Assembly: GCA_004213405.1 (NCBI GenBank)
Contig: SGYR01000001.1
Coordinates: 80,859 to 144,858, forward strand
From: Candidatus Actinomarinales bacterium
GTDB lineage: Bacteria; Actinomycetota; Acidimicrobiia; Actinomarinales; Actinomarinaceae
DNA length: 64,000 nt
Reading direction: 5' to 3'
Position numbers and translations under genes: made by a program. Under the pieces are notes generated by a model. It was not told the origin of the DNA and did not search any database. It saw only the letters and a program-made list of their open reading frames with translations. Shown one piece after another: positions 426 to 63,135 of this stretch. Numbering within the stretch: the stretch's first letter is position 1; every line of letters begins with the position of its first letter.

Positions 426-977
426 ATGAAACACGTAACAGTTTTTGGCTCATCAAGATGTGTCAAGGGTGACCAGGAGTACATATTTGCAGAAAACATT
501 GGCAACATGCTTGGGAAGCTAGGCCACAATGTTGCTACTGGAGGATACCAAGGGACAATGGAAGCAATTTCAAAAGGCGCTAGTAAGCATGGTGTAAATG
601 TAATTGGAGTGACTGTCCCTTCATTATTTTCTAATATGAGTAAAGATAGTTTTGAAGTTAAGGCAAACGAGTATATTAGCAAAGAAATACAAACAGAAAG
701 TTTGTCTGATAGAATCCACCACTTGCTTGAAAATTCTAAAGCTATTATTGTTCTCCCTGGAAAAATAGGAACTTTAACAGAGCTTATTGTTGCGTGGAAT
801 ACAAATTACTTATATAACATAAGTAATGATAAAGACGTTATACCAATTTTTTTGAAAAAAGACTACTGGAAAGACATTATTGACAATATGCCTGAAGATA
901 TGGAGCTAAGTAACAATTTTTTAGAATATTATGAAAACGTGGGGGATTTAGAAAAATTTATTGAAAAATTACACTAA
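426..977 (+). CDS. LOG-family / TIGR00725-like Rossmann-fold nucleotide-binding protein
   Basis: 183 aa. Has VFGSS...GGYQGTMEA and the [10 protein letters not shown] (PGGxGTxxE-like) motif of the LOG/lysine-decarboxylase-like family. Confidence 0.7.
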
Positions 978-2024
978 GTCTTGTTCTCTAATCCCAAAAG
1001 ATGGATGGCGAAGTCTACAAAGAGCTAACTTTTCTAACTGTCTTATTCTTTCACGTGTTAGATCAAATTCTTCACCTATTTCTTCAAGCGTTCTTGGAAC
1101 ACCATCATAAAATCCATATCTCAAAGCTAATATTCTTCCTTCTCTTTCAGGAAGCCTACTAATACTATCTCTAAGGCTTTCCGCTACATCTAAATCCTGA
1201 ACAATTAATGAAGGATCACTAGCATCTTCATCTTGGATAAAATCACCAAGCTGTGCACCGTCTTCACCGACAGGTTGTTCTAAAGAAACTGTATCAGCAA
1301 CACTTAAAGCTAGTTCAACTTTATCAACCCCTACACCTGCTTCTTTAGCAATCTCTTGTGGTTTTGGATCTCTACCCAATTCAGCTTTGAGTTGAGCTTG
1401 TGCCGCACGCACTGCAGCCATTGTGTCATGTAGGTGTACAGGAATTCTTACAGTTCTTGATTTATCAGCAATAGCTCTTGTTATGGCCTGTCTAATCCAC
1501 CAAGTTGCGTAAGTTGAAAATTTAAAACCTTTACGCCAATCGAACTTTTCAACGGCACGTATTAAACCAAGGTTTCCTTCCTGGATTAAATCTAGAAAAT
1601 CTATACCTGAGGTGTTTGCATATCTTCTTGCATTAGCGACAACCAGTCTTAGGTTTGCGGTAAGAAAAGCGTCTTTGGCCTCGGCGCCTTTTTTTCTGTC
1701 TCTTTTTAAACGTATTTCACCTTTTTTATCTTTAAATTGTTTCTTTTGCAACTTTACAGAAGCTTTTTCACCAGATTCAATTTTCTGAGCTAATTCAACT
1801 TCTTGTTCTGCGGTTAGTAAGTCAAAGTTTCCAATCGCAGTTAAATATTGGCTAACTAGGTCTGTAGTAAGTTTTCCTTTATCATCAGCCAATTTTTTTG
1901 TTAGTGATTTTGCTTTTTCACGAGCAGCTTTCTCCTGTTCAGGAGTTAAGCTAGTGTCTTCATTTGAAAAATCTGCTTCTTTAGCCTGTGGTTTTGGCTT
2001 TGAAGGTATTGTTTTAGTCACCAT
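969..2024 (-). CDS. rpoD: RNA polymerase sigma-70 factor, principal (HrdB/RpoD-like)
   Basis: 351 aa with regions 2-4 intact ([43 protein letters not shown]; [21 protein letters not shown]). Lys/Glu-rich N-terminus as in actinobacterial primary sigma factors. Confidence 0.9.
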
Positions 2025-2087: not shown

Positions 2088-2978
2088 TTAAAGCGAATTG
2101 ATAAATAAATTATTTTTTGAAAGATCAATGCTTACATATATATAGGAAATCCACAAAAAATCGGCAATTGCTAGGTGCAATATGCTTAAAGGCAGAACTA
2201 TATTGGATAAAACATTTATGACTCCCAGAAATACAGCAATAATTATTAATATTTGTAATGGTTTAACGCCTACATTATATTTTTTTCTAATCCCAGTTGC
2301 ATAAACGTATAAAACTATCGATAGTGTTGAGGAAATAATCGGGTGTAAAATTCTTAATCTGGTCAACACTTCGGATGTTCTGTCAAAATCTGCTAAAAAC
2401 CCTTCAACAAATGAAGTGCTTGGAAATAAGACATCAGCTAAAGCAGTGATTGAGCCAGTTGCTCCACTTAGAAGAAATAAAGAAGAAATTAACAAAAAGT
2501 TTTTGTTGAACATATTTTTTATGTTCTGAAGATCATCTTGGAGTATTTTATATAATATTGCATAACTCCCTAGCAAACCAAAAGTGTTTACTAAATGAAT
2601 TGGAACTGCAATGACTCTTGGGAGTGAACTATTAAGACCTACCCATTCAAAAATGACAATTACTGCTCCGATTAGCGCTTCAAAAATTACGAAAAAAGTA
2701 AGATAATTAGTTACTATTCTTACCAAAGAGTCTTTTTGAAATTTCCTAGTTTTTGCAAAAATTATCAAAGTAACAACTAATAAAACTCCACTTACGGAAC
2801 GATGGGAAAATTCAATTAATTCTGAAGTATCTGATAATGCAGGAATTATCTTTCCTTTACATGTAGGCCAAGTAGCTCCACATCCATCTCCAGACCCGGT
2901 AGCCCTAACAAATGCACCAGCCAAAATTGAAGCTATTGATAATAAAAGACCTGCTTTTGCGTAAGACTCGACTTTCAC
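2088..2978 (-). CDS. ctaA: heme A synthase (COX15/CtaA family)
   Basis: 296 aa polytopic membrane protein with an N-terminal GSGDGCGATWPTC cysteine pair and conserved His residues. Lies near ctaB and ctaCDEFG. Confidence 0.75.
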   Translation of the reverse strand: MKVESYAKAGLLLSIASILAGAFVRATGSGDGCGATWPTCKGKIIPALSDTSELIEFSHRSVSGVLLVVTLIIFAKTRKFQKDSLVRIVTNYLTFFVIFEALIGAVIVIFEWVGLNSSLPRVIAVPIHLVNTFGLLGSYAILYKILQDDLQNIKNMFNKNFLLISSLFLLSGATGSITALADVLFPSTSFVEGFLADFDRTSEVLTRLRILHPIISSTLSIVLYVYATGIRKKYNVGVKPLQILIIIAVFLGVINVLSNIVLPLSILHLAIADFLWISYIYVSIDLSKNNLFINSL

Positions 2979-3577
2979 AGTAAATTATCTAAAAATGTTC
3001 TAAGTGAATCCCAAAATAAGGAGAATGAATTATAAATAACAATACAAAGCACCAGAAGCAAAGCTGTTGTTTTGAGATTTCGAGTGAAATAAAAACCAAT
3101 TTGTTTTTGATCATATATATATGGCTCTTCATCGGAAAACTCAAGGAGGTTAGTAGTTTGTAGGGGTTTTGTAAGATATTCTTCTAAAGTTTCTTCTTTT
3201 ACCTCAGAAACCTCAACTGATTCATAATCAAAATCATTAAGTGTTGATTCTTTTCTTTGGAAGGTATTTCGAAGTTTATCTATTCTAGTTTGTTTAATTT
3301 GCACATCATCATTTTTTATTGAGAAGAGACTTTCTTCAGTTAATAATGAACCTACTTCTTTTAATTGTTCCGTTGAGAACCCATCAAGCGTATGTGTTAT
3401 TTCGGTACCTAACAATCCTTCAAGAGCATTAATAATTTTTTTATCCGTAGGAAAACTCGTTCCAGCTTCCCATTGCTTAACATCTTTTACTTTTACCCCT
3501 GTAAAAGAAGCAATCTGTTTATTACTTAAGCCCCTATCCGCTTTAAGTCTTTTAAATTCTATTTGAAAATTATTCAT
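2975..3577 (-). CDS. XRE-type helix-turn-helix protein with C-terminal membrane anchor
   Basis: I start it at internal ATG 3577..3575 (MNNFQIEFKRLKADRGLSNKQIASFTGVKVKDVKQWEAG...), because the track's longer ORF (to 3715) runs through the tRNA-Sec gene. Acidic linker, then a single TM (TTALLLVLCIVIYNSFSLFW). Its stop overlaps the ctaA start by 4 nt. Confidence 0.6.
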   Translation of the reverse strand: MNNFQIEFKRLKADRGLSNKQIASFTGVKVKDVKQWEAGTSFPTDKKIINALEGLLGTEITHTLDGFSTEQLKEVGSLLTEESLFSIKNDDVQIKQTRIDKLRNTFQRKESTLNDFDYESVEVSEVKEETLEEYLTKPLQTTNLLEFSDEEPYIYDQKQIGFYFTRNLKTTALLLVLCIVIYNSFSLFWDSLRTFLDNLL

Positions 3578-3628
3578 TACTTTAATTCTATTCAATATAA
3601 TTTTTTTTATATAACTAGTCTTAAGTAC

Positions 3629-3720
3629 GGAGGTGAATGAGCGCCTGGTGGGCTCCACAGTCTTCAAAACTGTTGAAAGGTGTAAAAGTCTTTGGCAGGT
3701 TCGATTCCTGTCCACCTCCG
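3629..3720 (+). tRNA. selC: tRNA-Sec (anticodon TCA)
   Basis: GGAGGTG...CACCTCC acceptor. Anticodon arm ACAGT-CTTCAAA-ACTGT, so anticodon TCA. Long variable arm (AAAGGT/GTCTTT stem). T arm GGCAGG-TTCGATT-CCTGTC. Acceptor plus T stems total 13 bp, as in bacterial tRNA-Sec. About 92 nt with no encoded CCA. Confidence 0.85.
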
Positions 3721-3755
3721 CTACTTTATAAGATATACATGTTTAATATAGAAAA

Positions 3756-6779: not shown

Positions 6780-9293
6780 ATGAATGAAAACATTAGACTA
6801 CCAAAAATAGCAATACCTCACAGATACGAAATCAATCTAGATATTAACTTAGATGAATTTAGCTACACGGGCAAAGAAGTTGTTTTCTTGGAAATAGTTG
6901 ATGAAACAAAAGAATTACAACTTCACTCACTAGGAATTGAAATAGAAAATGCTTTTATAGAAAATGACTCAGGTGAACATATTGAGGCTTCAATTAATTA
7001 TTTACCTGAAGAAGAGAGAGTTTCACTTATTTTCGAAGATAAAATTACTCAAGGAGATTGGCAACTTTATCTTGATTTCAAAGCCACAATAGTTGATGAA
7101 TTAAGAGGGTTTTACAGAAGTAGCTTTAAAGATTCAAAAAATAAAGATGTTTGGATTGCGACTACTCAATTCGAACCAACAGCAGCGAGAATGGCATTTC
7201 CTTGTTGGGATGAGCCAGAATTCAAAGCTATATTTTCCATAGCTTTAACCTCAGACAGTGATTTGATAAGAATTAGTAATGAAAAAGTGTTGAATGAATC
7301 AACTGAAAACAATAGAACTACAACTAAGTTTGTTGACTCTATGAGAATGTCAACATACCTAGTAGCTTTTGTTGTTGGTAAATTAGAAGTTTCTAAGATA
7401 GGATCTTCAAAAACAACTGATGTAGGAATAGTGCATAGGCCAGGTTTTTCTGACCAAACTAATTTTGCTGGCACAGCTGCAATAAAAATTCTGGATTTCT
7501 TTGAGGATTACTACGGGATAAATTATCCAGGATCAAAATTAGATCTTATAGCAATACCTGATTTTGCTATGGGTGCAATGGAAAATGTTGGGGCCGTTAC
7601 TTTTCGAGAAACGCTACTACTTATTGAAGTAGAAAAAGCAACAAGAGCAGAGTTATCAAGGTCTGTTGAAGTAATTGCTCACGAATTGGCTCATATGTGG
7701 TTTGGAGACTTAGTAACCATGAACTGGTGGGATGGTATTTGGCTAAATGAAGCATTTGCAAGTTTAATGGAAGTTATAGCTTCTGAAGCAACTTACCCCG
7801 AGTTTAAATTATGGAATCAGATGAACCTAGACAGGTCAAGAGGGTTTGGAGTTGACTCATTGAAGTCTTCAAGACCAGTTGAGTTTGAAGTAAAAACTCC
7901 AGAACAAGCAGAAGAAATGTTTGATGTATTAACCTATCAAAAAGGTTCTACCGTACTCAGGATGTTTGAAACATTTATAGGTGAAGAAACTTTTAAGGAT
8001 GGTGTGAGAAAATATCTTAAAAAATATGAGTATAAAAATACACACTCTTCTGACCTTTGGAACGAACTTACAAGTGCAAGTTCTTATAACCTTAGTGAAA
8101 TTCTTCCTACATGGATACAACAAGAAGGGTATCCAATTGTAAATATCGAAAAAGAAGGTTCCAGTTTTAAAATATCTCAAAAGAAATATTTGATTGATGG
8201 AAGCACCGACGGGTCTCTTTGGAGTGTGCCCTTGAATATTAGATTCTTGGATAACGGTAAAGTTAATAAATTAGTTATGGATTCTGATTCAATCACGATT
8301 GAAAATGATGGTGCAATTCCTTTTATAAATAATGGTGGTTGGTCATTTTTTCACTCATCATATAGTGAAGATATCTTTGAAGAAATATTATTAAATTTTG
8401 AAAAACTTGACTTAAACGAAAAATATAGAATTTTAGAAGATTCTTGGATGGCATTGCGAATAGGTGAGTTGAAGCTATCACTTTTTATCAAACTTTTAAA
8501 CTTATATACAGGCGAAAAAGATATAAATATTTGGTCATTAATTAGTGGCATCTTTTCTACCTTTGCAAAAATTGGAGAAAATGATAGTTTTAAAAATTAT
8601 GTTAAAGATTTTAGCTATCCGTTAATAGAAACTCTAGGAAAAGAGTACCAAGATAAATTTAATCAAGAAGAATCCCAGTTAAGATCCTTGCTGTGTGGAA
8701 CTTATGCAAAGATAACTGAAGATTCAAAATTCATTGAATTTTTTGCAAATCAATTTATTTCAAATGAATATGAAGAATACGCTGATGGTAATTATTTTAA
8801 TTTAGTGTTATCAATTGCTGGAATGAAACAAGAGTGTTCCTCAGAAATATATATTGAAAAGTTTAAAAATTCATCATCACCCCAAATAGAAGCAAGATAT
8901 AGAGGGATCATCGGTACATTAAGTGACCCTGTTACTCCAAAAAATGTAATTGGAGCAATTTTGGATCAAACAATCAGAGGAGCAGATGCCCCTTATATAA
9001 TCGCTACTTTACTTTCAAATAGTAAGAATGCTTCTAATGGGTTTAAAGAAATAAAAAATAATTGGAGTGCCTTGCTCGAATTAATGCCTGGGTGGACAGC
9101 ATCACGAATACTTGATTCACTGCCATCAATATATGACAAATTACTGAGTGAAGAAATTAAATCTTTTGTTAATGAAAATCCACTTCCATCAGCCGAAAAA
9201 ATAACAAGGCAAAATATTGAGCGAATGGATGCGAATATAAAATTTAAAAACACAATAAAGGATGAGTTTATTAATACTAAATTTGAACTGTAA
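6780..9293 (+). CDS. pepN: aminopeptidase N (M1 family)
   Basis: 837 aa. GAMEN exopeptidase motif and HELAHMWFGDLVT...WLNEAFAS zinc site (HExxH-x18-E). Confidence 0.9.
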   Translation: MNENIRLPKIAIPHRYEINLDINLDEFSYTGKEVVFLEIVDETKELQLHSLGIEIENAFIENDSGEHIEASINYLPEEERVSLIFEDKITQGDWQLYLDFKATIVDELRGFYRSSFKDSKNKDVWIATTQFEPTAARMAFPCWDEPEFKAIFSIALTSDSDLIRISNEKVLNESTENNRTTTKFVDSMRMSTYLVAFVVGKLEVSKIGSSKTTDVGIVHRPGFSDQTNFAGTAAIKILDFFEDYYGINYPGSKLDLIAIPDFAMGAMENVGAVTFRETLLLIEVEKATRAELSRSVEVIAHELAHMWFGDLVTMNWWDGIWLNEAFASLMEVIASEATYPEFKLWNQMNLDRSRGFGVDSLKSSRPVEFEVKTPEQAEEMFDVLTYQKGSTVLRMFETFIGEETFKDGVRKYLKKYEYKNTHSSDLWNELTSASSYNLSEILPTWIQQEGYPIVNIEKEGSSFKISQKKYLIDGSTDGSLWSVPLNIRFLDNGKVNKLVMDSDSITIENDGAIPFINNGGWSFFHSSYSEDIFEEILLNFEKLDLNEKYRILEDSWMALRIGELKLSLFIKLLNLYTGEKDINIWSLISGIFSTFAKIGENDSFKNYVKDFSYPLIETLGKEYQDKFNQEESQLRSLLCGTYAKITEDSKFIEFFANQFISNEYEEYADGNYFNLVLSIAGMKQECSSEIYIEKFKNSSSPQIEARYRGIIGTLSDPVTPKNVIGAILDQTIRGADAPYIIATLLSNSKNASNGFKEIKNNWSALLELMPGWTASRILDSLPSIYDKLLSEEIKSFVNENPLPSAEKITRQNIERMDANIKFKNTIKDEFINTKFEL

Positions 9294-37789: not shown

Positions 37790-37892
37790 TCTTCAATAAT
37801 ATCAGCTATGTCAAAAGAATTTAAATAATGGCGTTTATTAAATAATTTAAAAATATTTTTGTTTAAAATCATAAATATGTTATATTTAATAC

Positions 37893-37918
37893 AAATCTAA
37901 GTAATAATACTTAGATTT
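37893..37918. promoter_or_regulatory. perfect 11-4-11 inverted repeat, candidate HspR operator (HAIR-like)
   Basis: AAATCTAAGTA-ATAA-TACTTAGATTT, about 48 nt upstream of the first ATG of the dnaK operon. The inner half-sites ..AAGT / ACTT.. resemble the HAIR consensus CTTGAGT-N7-ACTCAAG, but the spacing and two positions differ. Confidence 0.45.
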
Positions 37919-37953
37919 TATGTACAAATAAACATAGATAAGGATGGTAAACA

Positions 37954-38157
37954 ATGAGCGGAACTTTAACTGCATCACAAGTTAAGCCTGGTGTTAGAAG
38001 ATCAAAGAAATACACTACAGGTCGAGTATGCGCATTTGATACTTGTGAAACAGTGATAAGCGTATACAACAAAAAGAAATTTTGTTTTCTTCACGCACCT
38101 GTCTCCTATCCAAGGGTAAGAGGGCATTTGCCAAGAGAACAAGAGCCAATTACATAA
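37954..38157 (+). CDS. small basic zinc-ribbon-like protein (C-x4-C-x12-C-x2-H), first gene of the dnaK operon; paralog of 62839..63033
   Basis: 67 aa with an SD (AAGGATGG) upstream. Shares ASQ(V/I)K.G(V/I)R.SK....GRVC....C.T..S(V/I)YNK...CF.HAPV.YPRVRG with the second copy. Only 30 nt separate it from dnaK. Confidence 0.65.
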   Translation: MSGTLTASQVKPGVRRSKKYTTGRVCAFDTCETVISVYNKKKFCFLHAPVSYPRVRGHLPREQEPIT

Positions 38158-38187
38158 CTACAAAATTTTAAGAAAGGATAATTCAAA

Positions 38188-39996
38188 ATGGGAAAAGCCG
38201 TAGGAATTGACTTGGGAACAACAAATAGTGTTGTAGCAGTGCTTGAAGGTGGTGAGCCAACTGTTATTGCTAACGCAGAAGGAAATAGAACAACACCTTC
38301 TATTGTTGCTTTTAAATCAGAAGAAGTTCTAGTTGGTGAGCTTGCAAAAAGGCAAGCAATAACAAATCCGGATAACACAGTTAGATCTATTAAGAGACAT
38401 ATCGGAACTAATTGGAAAGAAAACTTTGAAGGCAAAGACTATACGCCACAAGAAATATCAGCAAGAATATTACAAAAACTTAAAAGAGATGCTGAGTCAT
38501 ATTTAGGAGATGATGTTACAGATGCTGTAATTACAGTTCCAGCATATTTTAATGATGCTGAAAGGCAAGCAACAAAAGAAGCTGGACAAATTGCAGGATT
38601 GAACGTATTAAGAATAATAAATGAACCTACTGCTGCATCTCTTTCATACGGACTAGAAAACAATGAAGATCAAAAAATACTCGTATTTGATTTAGGTGGT
38701 GGTACTTTTGATGTTTCTATATTAGAAATTTCTGAGGGTGTGTTTGAAGTAAAGTCAACATCAGGAGATTCTAAGCTTGGTGGAGATGACTGGGATCAGA
38801 GGGTAATGGATTGGTTAATCGAAAAGTTTAAATCCTCAACTGGTATTGATTTATCAAATGATAAGATGGCAATTCAGAGAGTTCAAGAAGGTTCAGAAAA
38901 AGCTAAAATTGAACTTTCATCTACTAGTGAAACAGAAATTAACTTGCCATTTATTACCGCTAATGATGCTGGACCTCAACATTTGCTTGAAAAATTAAGT
39001 AGGTCTGAGTTTGAAAAGATTACTGCAGATTTAGTTGAAAGAACAAAAGAACCAGTCGAAAATGCATTGTCTGATGCTGGAATGAAATTTTCTGATATCG
39101 ATCATGTTATATTAGTTGGTGGTTCGACTCGAATGCCATCAGTTCAACAACTTGTAAAATCCCTTACAGGCAAAGACCCTCATAAAGGTGTTAATCCTGA
39201 TGAAGTTGTTGCATCTGGAGCTGCTATTCAAGCTGGAGTACTTAAAGGTGATGTAAAAGATGTCCTTTTATTAGATGTTACACCACTTACTTTGGGTGTT
39301 GAAACTAAAGGTGGAATCATGACCAAAATGATTGAAAGAAATACAACAATCCCTACTAAAAGATCCGAAGTATTTAGTACAGCTGAAAACAACCAAACCC
39401 AGGTTGAAATACATATCTTGCAAGGTGAAAGAGAAATGGCTTCTGGAAACAAGTCTCTAGGAAGATTCAATTTAACTGATATACCCGCAGCTATGGCTGG
39501 TACGCCTCAAATAGAGGTAACTTTTGATATCGATGCTAATGGTATTGTAAATGTCAATGCTAAAGATCTAGGAACAGGTAAAGAGCAGGCCATTACCATT
39601 ACTGGTGGTACAGCACTTGAAGAAGATGAAATCGAAAGAATGGTAAAAGATGCTGAACAACACGCTAATGAAGATGCAAAAAAGAAAGAGCTTGTTGAAA
39701 CCAGAAACATGGCTGAAGGCATGGTTACCTCAACTGAAAAAATGTTGGAAGAAAATAAAGATAAGGCAACAGAAGAAGAGGTGACAGCAATCAATGATGC
39801 AAATGATAAATTGAAAAAACTTTTAGAAAATGAAGATTTGTCGATTGATGATTTGAAAAATGGTATTGATGAACTTGCAAAAGCCAGTCAATCATTTGCT
39901 GAGAAATTGTACGCGGAAGCTCAAAATGACACTGCTAACCCATCTTCAGATGAGTCAGATGACGTAGTTGAAGGTGAAGTTATAGAGGATGAATAA
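38188..39996 (+). CDS. dnaK: molecular chaperone DnaK (Hsp70)
   Basis: 602 aa. [23 protein letters not shown], and [11 protein letters not shown]. Confidence 0.97.
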
Positions 39997-40489
39997 AGAG
40001 GAAGAGTCTTTGATTGAGGAAGTAGATAATACTTCTGACGAACCTTCAGAAGATGAAGAAGTAATCGAGGAAACTTCTGTACCTCTTTCGCAATATGAAA
40101 AAATAAAAGATGACTATCTGAGGCTTGCCGCTGAGTTCGACAATTATAAAAAGAGAACTGACAAAGAAAAAGAAAGCATAGGTGCAGCATCTGTTGCTTA
40201 TTTTGTTAACTCTCTGTTTCCACTAATTGATAACTTTGAAATGGCTATGAATCAAGAGGAAGTTTCAAAAGAACTTGAAACTTTCAACAACCTCCTAACT
40301 TCAGTTTTAGAAGGGCTACAGGTTGAAGAAATTGGAACTATTGGAGAAAATTTTGATCCTTCTATACATGAAGCTGTTGAGCATTCGGGAGAGGGTGACA
40401 CTCAAATAGTTGAAACAATCTTAAGAAAAGGTTATCTATTTCAAGGTAATTTAATACGTCCTGCAATGGTAAAAGTTAAAAGTGAGTAG
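39989..40489 (+). CDS. grpE: nucleotide exchange factor GrpE
   Basis: 166 aa. [13 protein letters not shown] motif and C-terminal beta-domain ([16 protein letters not shown]). Overlaps the dnaK end. Confidence 0.9.
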
Positions 40490-41567
40490 GGACTGGTTAG
40501 ACAAGGATTTCTACGCCACACTAGGTGTCTCAAAAGATGCTAGCACTGAAGATATAAAAAAAGCGTATAAGAAATTAGCCAGAGAAAATCACCCAGATTT
40601 AAACCCAGGTGATCCAGAGGCAGAAAAAAAATTCAAAGAGATTTCAGAAGCAAGCTCAATTTTAGGAGATGAAAGAAAAAGACAAGAATATGACCAAGTA
40701 CGTGCAATGGGAGCTTCAGGTTTTGGAGGCTTTGGTGGTCAAGGGTTTAATGTAGATGATTTTGGAGACCTGTTTGGAAATTTAGGTGATATTTTTGGTT
40801 TTGGCGGATCTGGAGGAAGACGAAAAGGCCAAACTTATCAAACAAATATAAACATATCTTTTCATGATGCAGCTAAAGGCGTTGAAACTGTGATTCCTCT
40901 TCGTAAAGAAGTAGCTTGTTCTGCTTGTAAAGGTACAGGTGCCGATAAAGGGGAAGCATTTCACAGATGTAACATATGCAATGGAAGCGGGCAAACTGCC
41001 TCCAATCAAGGTTTCTTTTCTTTTGCTCAAACTTGTTCTGCTTGTAAGGGTCAAGGAAATGTTATTGATAAAGCATGTAAAACCTGTAGGAGTTCTGGTG
41101 CTGTAATTGAAAATGAATCTATAAAAGTAAAAGTTCCAGCTGGAGTAGATAACGGAACAGTTATTAGACTACGCGGCAGAGGCGGTCCAGGAGACGCAGG
41201 CGCACCAGATGGAGACCTCTTGGTTCAGGTTGGTGTTGAACCACACAAATTCTTTAAAAGAAATAACAGTGACCTTATTCTTGAAGTTCCTTTACTTTTT
41301 ACGGAAGCAGCCCTAGGTTCAAGCATCAAAATTCCTACTCTTGAAAAATCAGTAACTTTAAAAATACCTGCTGGTACTCCTAGTGGAAAAACTTTTAAAA
41401 TTAAAAGTGAAGGCATAGCTCCTCAAGGCAGAAGGCCTGGAGATTTATATGTAAAAGTATTTATTTCTCCACCATCAAATTTATCAAGATCTGCAAAAAA
41501 ACATCTTGAGAGTTATCGTGATCAATTTGAATCTGGAGACAGTCCAAGGGATTATTTATATGAGTAG
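40482..41567 (+). CDS. dnaJ: co-chaperone DnaJ
   Basis: 361 aa. J domain (DFYATLGV...KKAYKKLARENHPDLNP), a G/F region, and four CxxCxGxG zinc repeats. GTG start. Confidence 0.95.
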   Translation: MSRDWLDKDFYATLGVSKDASTEDIKKAYKKLARENHPDLNPGDPEAEKKFKEISEASSILGDERKRQEYDQVRAMGASGFGGFGGQGFNVDDFGDLFGNLGDIFGFGGSGGRRKGQTYQTNINISFHDAAKGVETVIPLRKEVACSACKGTGADKGEAFHRCNICNGSGQTASNQGFFSFAQTCSACKGQGNVIDKACKTCRSSGAVIENESIKVKVPAGVDNGTVIRLRGRGGPGDAGAPDGDLLVQVGVEPHKFFKRNNSDLILEVPLLFTEAALGSSIKIPTLEKSVTLKIPAGTPSGKTFKIKSEGIAPQGRRPGDLYVKVFISPPSNLSRSAKKHLESYRDQFESGDSPRDYLYE

Positions 41568-41949
41568 CGATGACTCCAACGCTATTTATTTTATTTCAGT
41601 AGCCTCTACCCTTTCAGGTATCCATCAACAAACAATAAGAACCTATGAGCAAAAAGGTTTAATTAAGCCATTCAGAACTGGTGGAGGAACAAGAAGATAC
41701 TCTCAGGAAGACATAGATAAATTAATCCAGATTCAAAATTTATCCCAGAGAGGAATCAACTTAGATGGAATAAAAATTATTTATGAAATGAAAGATAAAA
41801 TTGAAGAATTACAGAACAAACTAATTTACTTAGAAAATGAAATTTCAAATCAAAAAATAGATTCCAAAAACAAAGAAAAAGAAATCCACCAAAGCTATAA
41901 GAATGAAATTGTTAAAAAAACAAATAACTCCTTAAAGAAAAACATATAG
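41560..41949 (+). CDS. hspR: heat-shock transcriptional repressor HspR (MerR family)
   Basis: I start it at ATG 41560 (MSSDDSNAIYFISVASTLSGIHQQTIRTYEQKGLIKPFRTGGGTRRYSQEDI), which overlaps the dnaJ stop. The dnaK-grpE-dnaJ-hspR order is typical of Actinobacteria. Confidence 0.85.
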   Translation: MSSDDSNAIYFISVASTLSGIHQQTIRTYEQKGLIKPFRTGGGTRRYSQEDIDKLIQIQNLSQRGINLDGIKIIYEMKDKIEELQNKLIYLENEISNQKIDSKNKEKEIHQSYKNEIVKKTNNSLKKNI

Positions 41950-62802: not shown

Positions 62803-62820
62803 TTGTGAATATATTCACAA
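62803..62820. promoter_or_regulatory. perfect 18-bp palindrome containing a consensus CRP/FNR-family site TGTGA-N6-TCACA
   Basis: TTGTGAATATATTCACAA, centred about 27 nt upstream of ATG 62839 and directly followed by a TATATAAA -10-like element. Confidence 0.5.
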
Positions 62821-62838: not shown

Positions 62839-63033
62839 ATGACAGACGGATTAAAAGCTAGTCAAATTAAGGGCGGAATAAGGCCATCAAAAAGTTTTGA
62901 CCAGGGCAGAGTATGTAAAGATGAATCTTGCAGTACTCAACTAAGTATATATAACAAAAGAGATCATTGCTTCAACCACGCTCCAGTGAAATATCCTAGA
63001 GTTAGAGGCAGAATTCTCCAAGAAACTGCTTAA
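62839..63033 (+). CDS. small basic zinc-ribbon-like protein (C-x4-C-x12-C-x2-H), paralog of 37954..38157
   Basis: 64 aa: MTDGLKASQIKGGIRPSKSFDQGRVCKDESCSTQLSIYNKRDHCFNHAPVKYPRVRGRILQETA. SD AAAGGA upstream. Conserved blocks are shared with the dnaK-linked copy. Confidence 0.65.
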   Translation: MTDGLKASQIKGGIRPSKSFDQGRVCKDESCSTQLSIYNKRDHCFNHAPVKYPRVRGRILQETA

Positions 63034-63076: not shown

Positions 63077-63108
63077 ATAAGCCCCTATGAAAATAGGGGC
63101 TTATTTTA
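63077..63108 (+). terminator. rho-independent terminator-like hairpin (possibly also an operator) between the small Zn-ribbon gene and copZ
   Basis: ATAAGCCCCTAT-GAAA-ATAGGGGCTTAT followed by TTTTAT. A second hairpin, AAATCTC-CCCCAT-GAGATTT, precedes it at 63054..63073. Confidence 0.6.
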
Positions 63109-63135
63109 TAAACACAACATTATTATTATTCAACT

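Follow-up and report, generated by a model that had tools for sequence, protein, structure and literature searches.

In a 64,000-nucleotide stretch of DNA from a Candidatus Actinomarinales bacterium (contig SGYR01000001.1, positions 80,859 to 144,858; called the window below), a small gene, designated ZF1 here, stands directly before dnaK in the dnaK-grpE-dnaJ-hspR operon. The gene is genuine and its Cys3His ligand set is conserved, and as far as sequence searches reach, its family belongs to no named family and appears to be undescribed. We propose that the product is a basic module structured by zinc, which is induced under stress and binds nucleic acid or the transcription machinery, and we give this proposal about an even chance of being correct. 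Such a binder is favoured by the extreme and uniform positive charge of the family, its invariant arginines, and the presence of phage copies in replication modules.

An exhaustive hidden Markov model search of 1.84 billion representative proteins yielded 898 clusters, defined at 50% identity, at E <= 1e-3, and 90 of them at E <= 1e-10. Most of the members found by the profile search have 60–80 amino acids. In an alignment of 53 diverse members, R24, C26, C31, Y38, N39, C44 and H47 are invariant, and R15, S36, R54, R56 and G57 are nearly so. The translation of ZF1 (MSGTLTASQVKPGVRRSKKYTTGRVCAFDTCETVISVYNKKKFCFLHAPVSYPRVRGHLPREQEPIT) has the ligand spacing C26-x4-C31-x12-C44-x2-H47 and a pI of 9.95, and the family is basic throughout, with a median pI of 10.2 and a median net charge of +8.6 among 81 members. 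A single Cys3His zinc knuckle, C-x4-C-x12-C-x2-H, most likely forms the core of ZF1, with conserved Arg/Lys-rich tails on both sides. This module, for which zinc binding and a partner are predicted from the residue pattern and charge, would bind a polyanionic partner, namely DNA, RNA or a transcription complex. It may serve as a small regulator or nucleic-acid chaperone in stress, and also in phage replication, and the Cys3His site may double as a thiol-redox switch.

No family in Pfam or NCBIfam matched ZF1 or its paralog in the window, ZF2, even at E <= 10. Six relatives of ZF1 were likewise unmatched in NCBIfam, the PHROGs scan gave no match for the family, and sequence searches of the PDB, with the single protein and with the family profile, found nothing. 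The AlphaFold2 model of ZF1, built from an 81-sequence alignment, has a mean pLDDT of 80.5, which rises to about 89 over residues 21–50. Foldseek gave no fold match in the PDB for either model, and against BFVD it returned uncharacterised phage proteins only, with E >= 0.09. All of the source names of the members are 'hypothetical protein', many genome copies have neither accession nor name, and many genome annotations fail to call the small gene. No description of the small protein was found in the literature on Actinomarina, dnaK and zinc fingers, and a Red Sea paper on transcription start sites contained no Actinomarina data. The original prediction, made from the letters of the window alone, could not place the protein in a named family, and the Pfam, NCBIfam, PHROG and PDB searches agree with it; homologues with conserved Cys/His positions, whose absence was to count against the prediction, exist in the 898 clusters, with the ligands invariant in the 53 aligned members.

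A degenerate DNA pattern based on the invariant residues was applied to one genome per species and detected at least 120 loci. All 120 listed loci are true members, most of them in metagenome-assembled genomes of Acidimicrobiia and the rest in other Actinomycetota. The same pattern detected 58 IMG/VR viral contigs (L127–L184), mostly of 33–38% GC. The viral copies lie tightly behind an SLT-like open reading frame (ORF) in 30 loci, an exonuclease gene in 17 and a DnaB-type helicase gene in 13; the SLT-like ORF is a reading of the motif ES...GLFQ, with no database or PHROG match. In 12 loci the copy precedes a primase gene, and a portal gene is found further downstream. No cultured-phage homologue was obtained by tblastn against INPHARED. 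A WhiB-like ORF is present in only one (L147) of 60 phage-like loci, i.e., the 58 viral contigs together with L125 and L126, and the viral hosts thus stay mostly unassigned. Some relatives have two domains (105–135 aa; P0139, P0141, P0093, P0155 and others), in which a C-terminal CxxC...H...LCE module without a Pfam match is added. P0139 (L125, 5001–5345; also L126) is the sole two-domain relative that was located, and it lies on a phage-like contig beside a Gp80-family gene.

The features of the dnaK locus in the window are as follows.

37859–37886, forward strand: putative sigma-70-type promoter, TTGTTT-16 nt-TATATT, read from the sequence, directly 5' of the inverted repeat
37894–37917, no strand: inverted repeat AATCTAAGTA-ATAA-TACTTAGATT, which can also be delimited as AATCTAAGT-AATAAT-ACTTAGATT; presumed HspR site, HAIR-like
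37940–37947, forward strand: Shine-Dalgarno sequence of ZF1, AAGGATGG, read from the sequence, 6 nt 5' of the ATG
37954–38157, forward strand: ZF1, 67-aa basic Cys3His protein, first cistron of the dnaK operon
38158–38187, forward strand: 30-nt spacer between ZF1 and dnaK, with the dnaK Shine-Dalgarno sequence AAAGGA
38188–39996, forward strand: dnaK, an ORF with a Pfam HSP70 match in orthologous loci
39989–40489, forward strand: grpE, an ORF overlapping the end of dnaK
40482–41567, forward strand: dnaJ, an ORF overlapping the end of grpE
41560–41949, forward strand: hspR, MerR-family heat-shock repressor of 129 aa from the ATG at 41560

Coordinates and spacing were re-read, which confirmed the predicted 67-aa basic Cys3His gene with its own Shine-Dalgarno sequence 30 nt before dnaK: the last base of the ZF1 stop codon is 38157, and dnaK starts with the ATG at 38188. 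A GGA-rich site equivalent to the ZF1 Shine-Dalgarno sequence is found in all of the orthologous loci examined, and the spacer measures 17–33 nt in the orthologous Actinomarinales loci. A terminator and a second inverted repeat were looked for in the ZF1-dnaK spacer, in the window and in the orthologous loci, and none was seen; co-transcription of ZF1 with dnaK is predicted from this layout. Hexamers like TTGCAT and TATATT occupy the place of the putative promoter in the orthologous loci, and a scan with a strict promoter consensus did not call the TTGTTT/TATATT pair at 37859–37886. The Rfam scan gave no RNA element near the ZF1 locus. The hspR product matched NCBIfam NF047375 (HeatShock_HspR) with 108.7 bits against a cutoff of 105, and also Pfam MerR_1. 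ZF1 is accordingly placed, as first described, as the promoter-proximal gene of dnaK-grpE-dnaJ-hspR, with an HspR above the NCBIfam equivalog cutoff.

The paralog ZF2 has surroundings of its own.

62803–62820, no strand: perfect 18-bp palindrome TTGTGAATATATTCACAA of the CRP/GlxR type (TGTGA-N6-TCACA), 5' of the ZF2 Shine-Dalgarno sequence
62839–63033, forward strand: ZF2, 64-aa paralog between an M3 peptidase gene and copZ
63077–63110, forward strand: hairpin ATAAGCCCCTAT-GAAA-ATAGGGGCTTAT with a T-rich stretch after it, resembling a terminator for the ZF2 transcript

BLASTP aligned ZF1 and ZF2 with 33/62 identities (53%; E = 1e-25), the four ligands and the C-terminal YPRVRG being in common, whereas their first 62 codons agree in only 54% of the nucleotides. 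Orthologues within Actinomarinales give dN/dS values of 0.04–0.10 for the dnaK-linked copy and 0.02–0.05 for ZF2, with dS of about 1–3 and synonymous sites near saturation. Both copies are under strong purifying selection. These values bear out two further points of the original prediction, that the paralogs share about half of their positions with all four ligands and YPRVRG, and that the duplication is old with both copies selected. They also bear on whether ZF1 is functional at all. A short ORF directly 5' of a regulated operon, uncalled in many genome annotations, could have arisen by chance, or could encode a regulatory leader peptide for dnaK. This explanation is refuted by dN/dS values of 0.02–0.10, by 898 homologous clusters with invariant Cys/His positions and by paralogs and orthologues in unrelated contexts, phages included, and its probability is negligible.

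The palindrome TTGTGAATATATTCACAA is identical in seven Actinomarinales loci with variable flanks and is the sole perfect match in the window. It is not general in high-GC relatives, of which just one or two have a similar site. Candidates for binding it are a Crp-family regulator and the small protein. In the OCS155 single-cell genome AG-333-G23, a third Actinomarinales copy, divergent from the others, was observed (L042, 1761–1964, reverse strand). It is 64% identical to the dnaK-linked type and lies away from dnaK, followed by small uncharacterised ORFs; some streamlined Actinomarinales genomes thus keep three paralogs. The best match of the dnaK-linked copy beyond its own group is the Actinomarinales paralog at M3 peptidase/copZA, with 57% identity, and 65 residues resolve too little to place its origin firmly in a tree.

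The neighbouring genes of the family members were grouped by clustering, with Pfam and NCBIfam checks, and the main arrangements are listed below in gene order.

Group A, 41 listed loci: gene for a SigH-like ECF sigma factor, gene for an RsrA-type ZAS anti-sigma factor, small gene, Zincin_2, tilS, ftsH
Group A2, about 12 listed loci: small gene at the head of Zincin_2-tilS-ftsH, with no sigma gene nearby
Group B, about 35 listed loci, including ZF2: M3 peptidase, small gene, a MerR-family gene in some, copZ/copA, PAC2
Group C, nine of the 120 listed loci, with four from a separate look-up and the window: small gene, dnaK-grpE-dnaJ-hspR

In group A, the sigma factor matched TIGR02947 with 244 bits and the anti-sigma factor TIGR03988 with 77 bits against a cutoff of 62.5. 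The dnaK linkage was seen only in Actinomarinales among the matches listed. The position upstream of dnaK, whose conservation the original prediction had put forward as a check, is therefore conserved within this order and not outside it among the 120 listed loci. Since the main positions are behind sigH-rsrA or at M3 peptidase/copZA, the family is linked to stress regulons generally, and not to Hsp70 specifically.

MerR-superfamily regulators recur beside family members in several groups. A fourth arrangement (L087, L112 and L033), read from the sequence, consists of an acetyl-CoA-synthetase-like gene, the small gene and a gene for a helix-turn-helix regulator with a B12-binding-like domain.

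The recurrent neighbours also raise the question of metal handling. Nearly all of them are zinc or copper proteins, and a zinc/thiol buffer or a metallochaperone serving the metalloproteins nearby (M3 peptidase, Zincin_2, FtsH, DnaJ, RsrA and CopZ/CopA) would be in keeping with this and with the invariant ligand set. A protein of 65 aa with one site would buffer poorly, however, and the phage context does not fit such a function. The conserved residues other than the ligands are arginines, a Tyr and an Asn, a set more suggestive of a binding surface than of metal handling. We regard this explanation as very unlikely.

A relaxed SigH-type motif, GGAAY-N16-19-GTT, is present upstream of the small gene in 34/41 loci of group A, 11/27 of group B and 5/11 of group A2, while the reverse-strand controls gave 3, 2 and 0 loci, respectively, with a background of 3% per 270-nt window. 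Of the 33 group A motif matches within +/-1.5 kb, 26 lie 100–200 nt 5' of the first Cys codon. The strict consensus of M. tuberculosis SigH, GGAAYR-N17-18-GTT (PMC4803200), was found in 14/41 loci of group A and 7/27 of group B, against a background of 1.2%. By this motif, the Acidimicrobiia family members are predicted to be direct SigH-RsrA targets. The promoters of SigH/SigR type that the family would have of its own in most other lineages point to it, as a whole, as one of the outputs of the network for heat and thiol-oxidative stress. Expression of dnaK is SigH-dependent in M. tuberculosis (PMC4803200), and the sigH-linked and dnaK-linked positions may thus be two wirings into the same stress network.

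No SigH-type motif was seen by eye upstream of ZF1 and ZF2 in the window, and none of sigH-rsrA, Zincin_2, tilS and ftsH is present in its 64 kb. Actinomarinales have only two sigma factors and 29–48 paralogs per genome (PMC7771536). It is plausible that SigH is absent from them and that one copy of the small gene has come under HspR control. The retention of 2–3 copies in genomes with so few sigma factors and paralogs speaks for an important function. The only sigma gene in the window (969–2024, reverse strand) encodes a group 1/2 sigma factor, RpoD/SigB-like.

The predicted SigH control also bears on a stress-induced ribosome- or RNA-associated zinc protein like L31, L36 and L33, which would supplement or replace oxidation-damaged parts or modulate translation. 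M. tuberculosis and S. coelicolor have the gene rpmE for zinc-binding L31 in their SigH/SigR regulons (PMC4803200), tilS is a frequent neighbour, and the size, charge and single knuckle with extended basic tails resemble those of small ribosomal proteins. In addition, the N-terminal VRRSKKY of ZF1 matches a stretch of the S17 protein of the organism, IRRSKKY. Conversely, the searches brought up no ribosomal protein of similar sequence or fold, there are several paralogs per genome in differing regulatory contexts, and the phage copies lie within replication modules. On balance, a ribosome- or RNA-associated role of this kind is unlikely. In the public contig P0015, the S17 N-terminus is fused to the small protein at the common peptide RRSKKY. 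The likeness of the small-protein VRRSKKY (window positions 37990–38013) to IRRSKKY of S17 would have misled the assembler, and the contig would thus be chimeric. The likeness itself may be a coincidence or a common basic motif of RNA-binding type.

The dnaK operon of the window has the same gene order as the HspR/HAIR operons of Streptomyces and Mycobacterium, with the MerR-type repressor last and an inverted repeat at the promoter, and differs from them in the extra leading cistron. We know of no description of a leading cistron in these model operons. In seven divergent Actinomarinales loci, the arms ATCTAAGT and ACTTAGAT of the repeat are constant and the 6–7 nt spacer varies; the group C loci compared have proteins that are only 76–98% identical. 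In a scan of metagenome contigs for the repeat, more than 50 of the 120 matches listed have the small gene 33–38 nt downstream, and the remaining ones are chance or coding matches, e.g., inside a phage ORF. The HAIR consensus is CTTGAGT-N7-ACTCAAG (PMC6102357). Compared with the Streptomyces HAIR, the repeat of the window, ATCTAAGT-N6/7-ACTTAGAT, has only the AGT-N6/7-ACT core in common, about 4/7 bases per arm, and its spacer is mostly one base shorter than N7. The HAIR-like repeat noted earlier upstream of ZF1 thus stands as a conserved operator-like repeat, and its likeness to HAIR is confined to the core. By analogy with the model operons, it is presumably the HspR operator. If it is the operator of the operon, transcription of dnaK must pass through the small gene.

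In the proposed mechanism, the Actinomarinales copy would be transcribed from a promoter overlapped by the conserved repeat, with predicted control by HspR. Under heat or proteotoxic stress, ZF1, as the first cistron of the repeat-controlled dnaK operon, would rise together with the Hsp70 system. An operon in common with dnaK-grpE-dnaJ would also suit a zinc-centred, redox-switched holdase or an Hsp70 partner, which would protect clients or escort DnaK in stress, like Hsp33 or the mitochondrial zinc-finger escort Hep1/Zim17. The proteostasis neighbours elsewhere (Zincin_2, FtsH, M3 peptidase and PAC2) agree with this, the predicted SigH/SigR control fits thiol-oxidative stress, and the Cys3His zinc site could lose its zinc on oxidation, like RsrA. 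However, the dnaK linkage is confined to Actinomarinales among the matches listed. The proteins, with about 65 aa, a GRAVY of -0.5 to -0.8 and a net charge of about +8, have no obvious client-binding surface, no Hsp33 or zf-DNL match was obtained in Pfam, and the phage copies adjoin genes for helicase, primase and exonuclease rather than for chaperones. From these points a holdase is distinctly unlikely. The original prediction had named both a redox-switched holdase, with Hsp33 as the analogy, and a nucleic-acid binder; nothing supports an Hsp33-like holdase, and the charge and the phage replication-module homologues favour the binder.

The family was compared with known small zinc or Cys-rich proteins. 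Hep1/Zim17 and Hsp33 are small zinc-dependent partners or members of chaperone systems, and the Hsp70 operon invites the analogy. Hep1 has a tetra-Cys arrangement, C-x2-C...C-x2-C, and Hsp33 has C-x-C...C-x2-C, whereas the family has Cys3His. Linkage to dnaK is lacking in most of the family members listed. Hsp33 was rejected since it gave no Pfam/NCBIfam match at E <= 10, and ZF1 has just 67 aa and Cys3His against the C-terminal four-Cys centre. For Hep1/Zim17, zf-DNL was unmatched by the window proteins and is not among the six Pfam families matched by the 53 members at E <= 1. The eukaryotic and viral EsV-1-7, CxC6 and Zf_WRKY19 have the same ligand order as the family, C-x4-C...C-x2-H, and occur in unrelated taxa. 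The spacing in EsV-1-7 is about 16, compared with 12 in the small-protein family. Matches below the Pfam threshold were obtained with CxC6 for 15/53 members, with EsV_1_7_cys for 7/53 and with Zf_WRKY19 for 4/53; a chance resemblance of Cys-rich patterns may account for them. EsV-1-7/CxC6 was rejected, the best E-values being 0.006–0.09, with about 12–13 bits against a cutoff of 27.5, and ZF1 itself being unmatched. The Ogr/Delta activators (Ogr_Delta, C-x2-C-x22-C-x4-C), with one weak match (E = 0.03) in one two-domain relative only, were also rejected.

In phyletic and genomic niche, the closest analogy is to the WhiB-like (Wbl) proteins, which are likewise small, Cys-rich, basic-tailed and stress-linked and known only from Actinomycetota and their phages. 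The [4Fe-4S] site of Wbl proteins, C-x(n)-C-x2-C-x5-C, and their G[VI]WGG turn are absent from the family. Membership was rejected, with no Whib Pfam match and no Wbl motif in ZF1. RbpA is an actinobacterial protein that binds RNA polymerase; in Streptomyces it is SigR-dependent and zinc-binding, with a site of Cys3His type and an N-terminal MSERALRGTR, which resembles the N-terminal consensus of the family. The family differs from RbpA in the ligand order and has no sigma-interaction domain. Homology to RbpA was rejected, because hhalign with an approximate RbpA sequence gave a probability of 0.7% over 10 N-terminal residues, and no RbpA Pfam match was found. In a more specific form of our proposal, the family members would be transcription cofactors of a new class, based on zinc and possibly sensitive to the thiol redox state, which Actinomycetota share with their phages and which are parallel in function to WhiB-like proteins or RbpA. 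These would be switched on by SigH/RsrA or HspR and, in oxidative or heat stress, would reprogramme transcription by binding to RNA polymerase, to a sigma factor or to promoter DNA, and the phage copies would take over host transcription or replication. We put this form forward tentatively and consider it rather improbable as a whole.

Several points weigh against a stress-induced binder of nucleic acid or the transcription machinery. The AlphaFold2 model of ZF1 is nearly without regular secondary structure, which is expected of a metal-organised knuckle, and no solved DNA- or RNA-binding fold was matched by the sequence profile or by Foldseek. The recurrent neighbours are mostly proteostasis genes (DnaK, FtsH, Zincin_2, M3 peptidase and PAC2), and this neighbourhood would equally suit a protein-directed role. 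As to the regulation, the repeat was found at no other heat-shock gene in the window, the fetched loci and the metagenome matches listed. With this, and with the HAIR match limited to the core, HspR binding is inferred, and the repeat may be the site of another regulator, or of the small protein. One subgroup of group A has its SigH-type motif within the 3' end of rsrA, where the motif's conservation could be due in part to coding constraint. The loci are phylogenetically related, and binomial P values therefore overstate their independence.

Two other features of the window were observed apart from the small genes. A PepN-type M1 aminopeptidase is encoded at 6780–9293 (forward strand). A selenocysteine tRNA gene lies at 3629–3721 (forward strand; Rfam RF01852, 75.4 bits; anticodon TCA by ARAGORN), which, in a very streamlined genome, overlaps the 5' end of the reverse-strand ORF 2975–3715, an ORF with no Pfam match.

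The type of operon described here is known, and its leading cistron and the family of this cistron appear to be new. The analysis defines a conserved gene family of about 900 clusters, which is often missed by genome annotation. Oceans, soils and wastewater are rich in Acidimicrobiia and Actinomarinales (e.g., Microthrix). The homologues in phage replication modules suggest a regulator shared by host and phage, as with WhiB. If the proposal of a stress-induced, zinc-structured binder is true, the family would be a new small zinc protein in the actinobacterial stress toolkit, and would offer a new handle on the interplay of phages and hosts in uncultured marine Actinobacteria.

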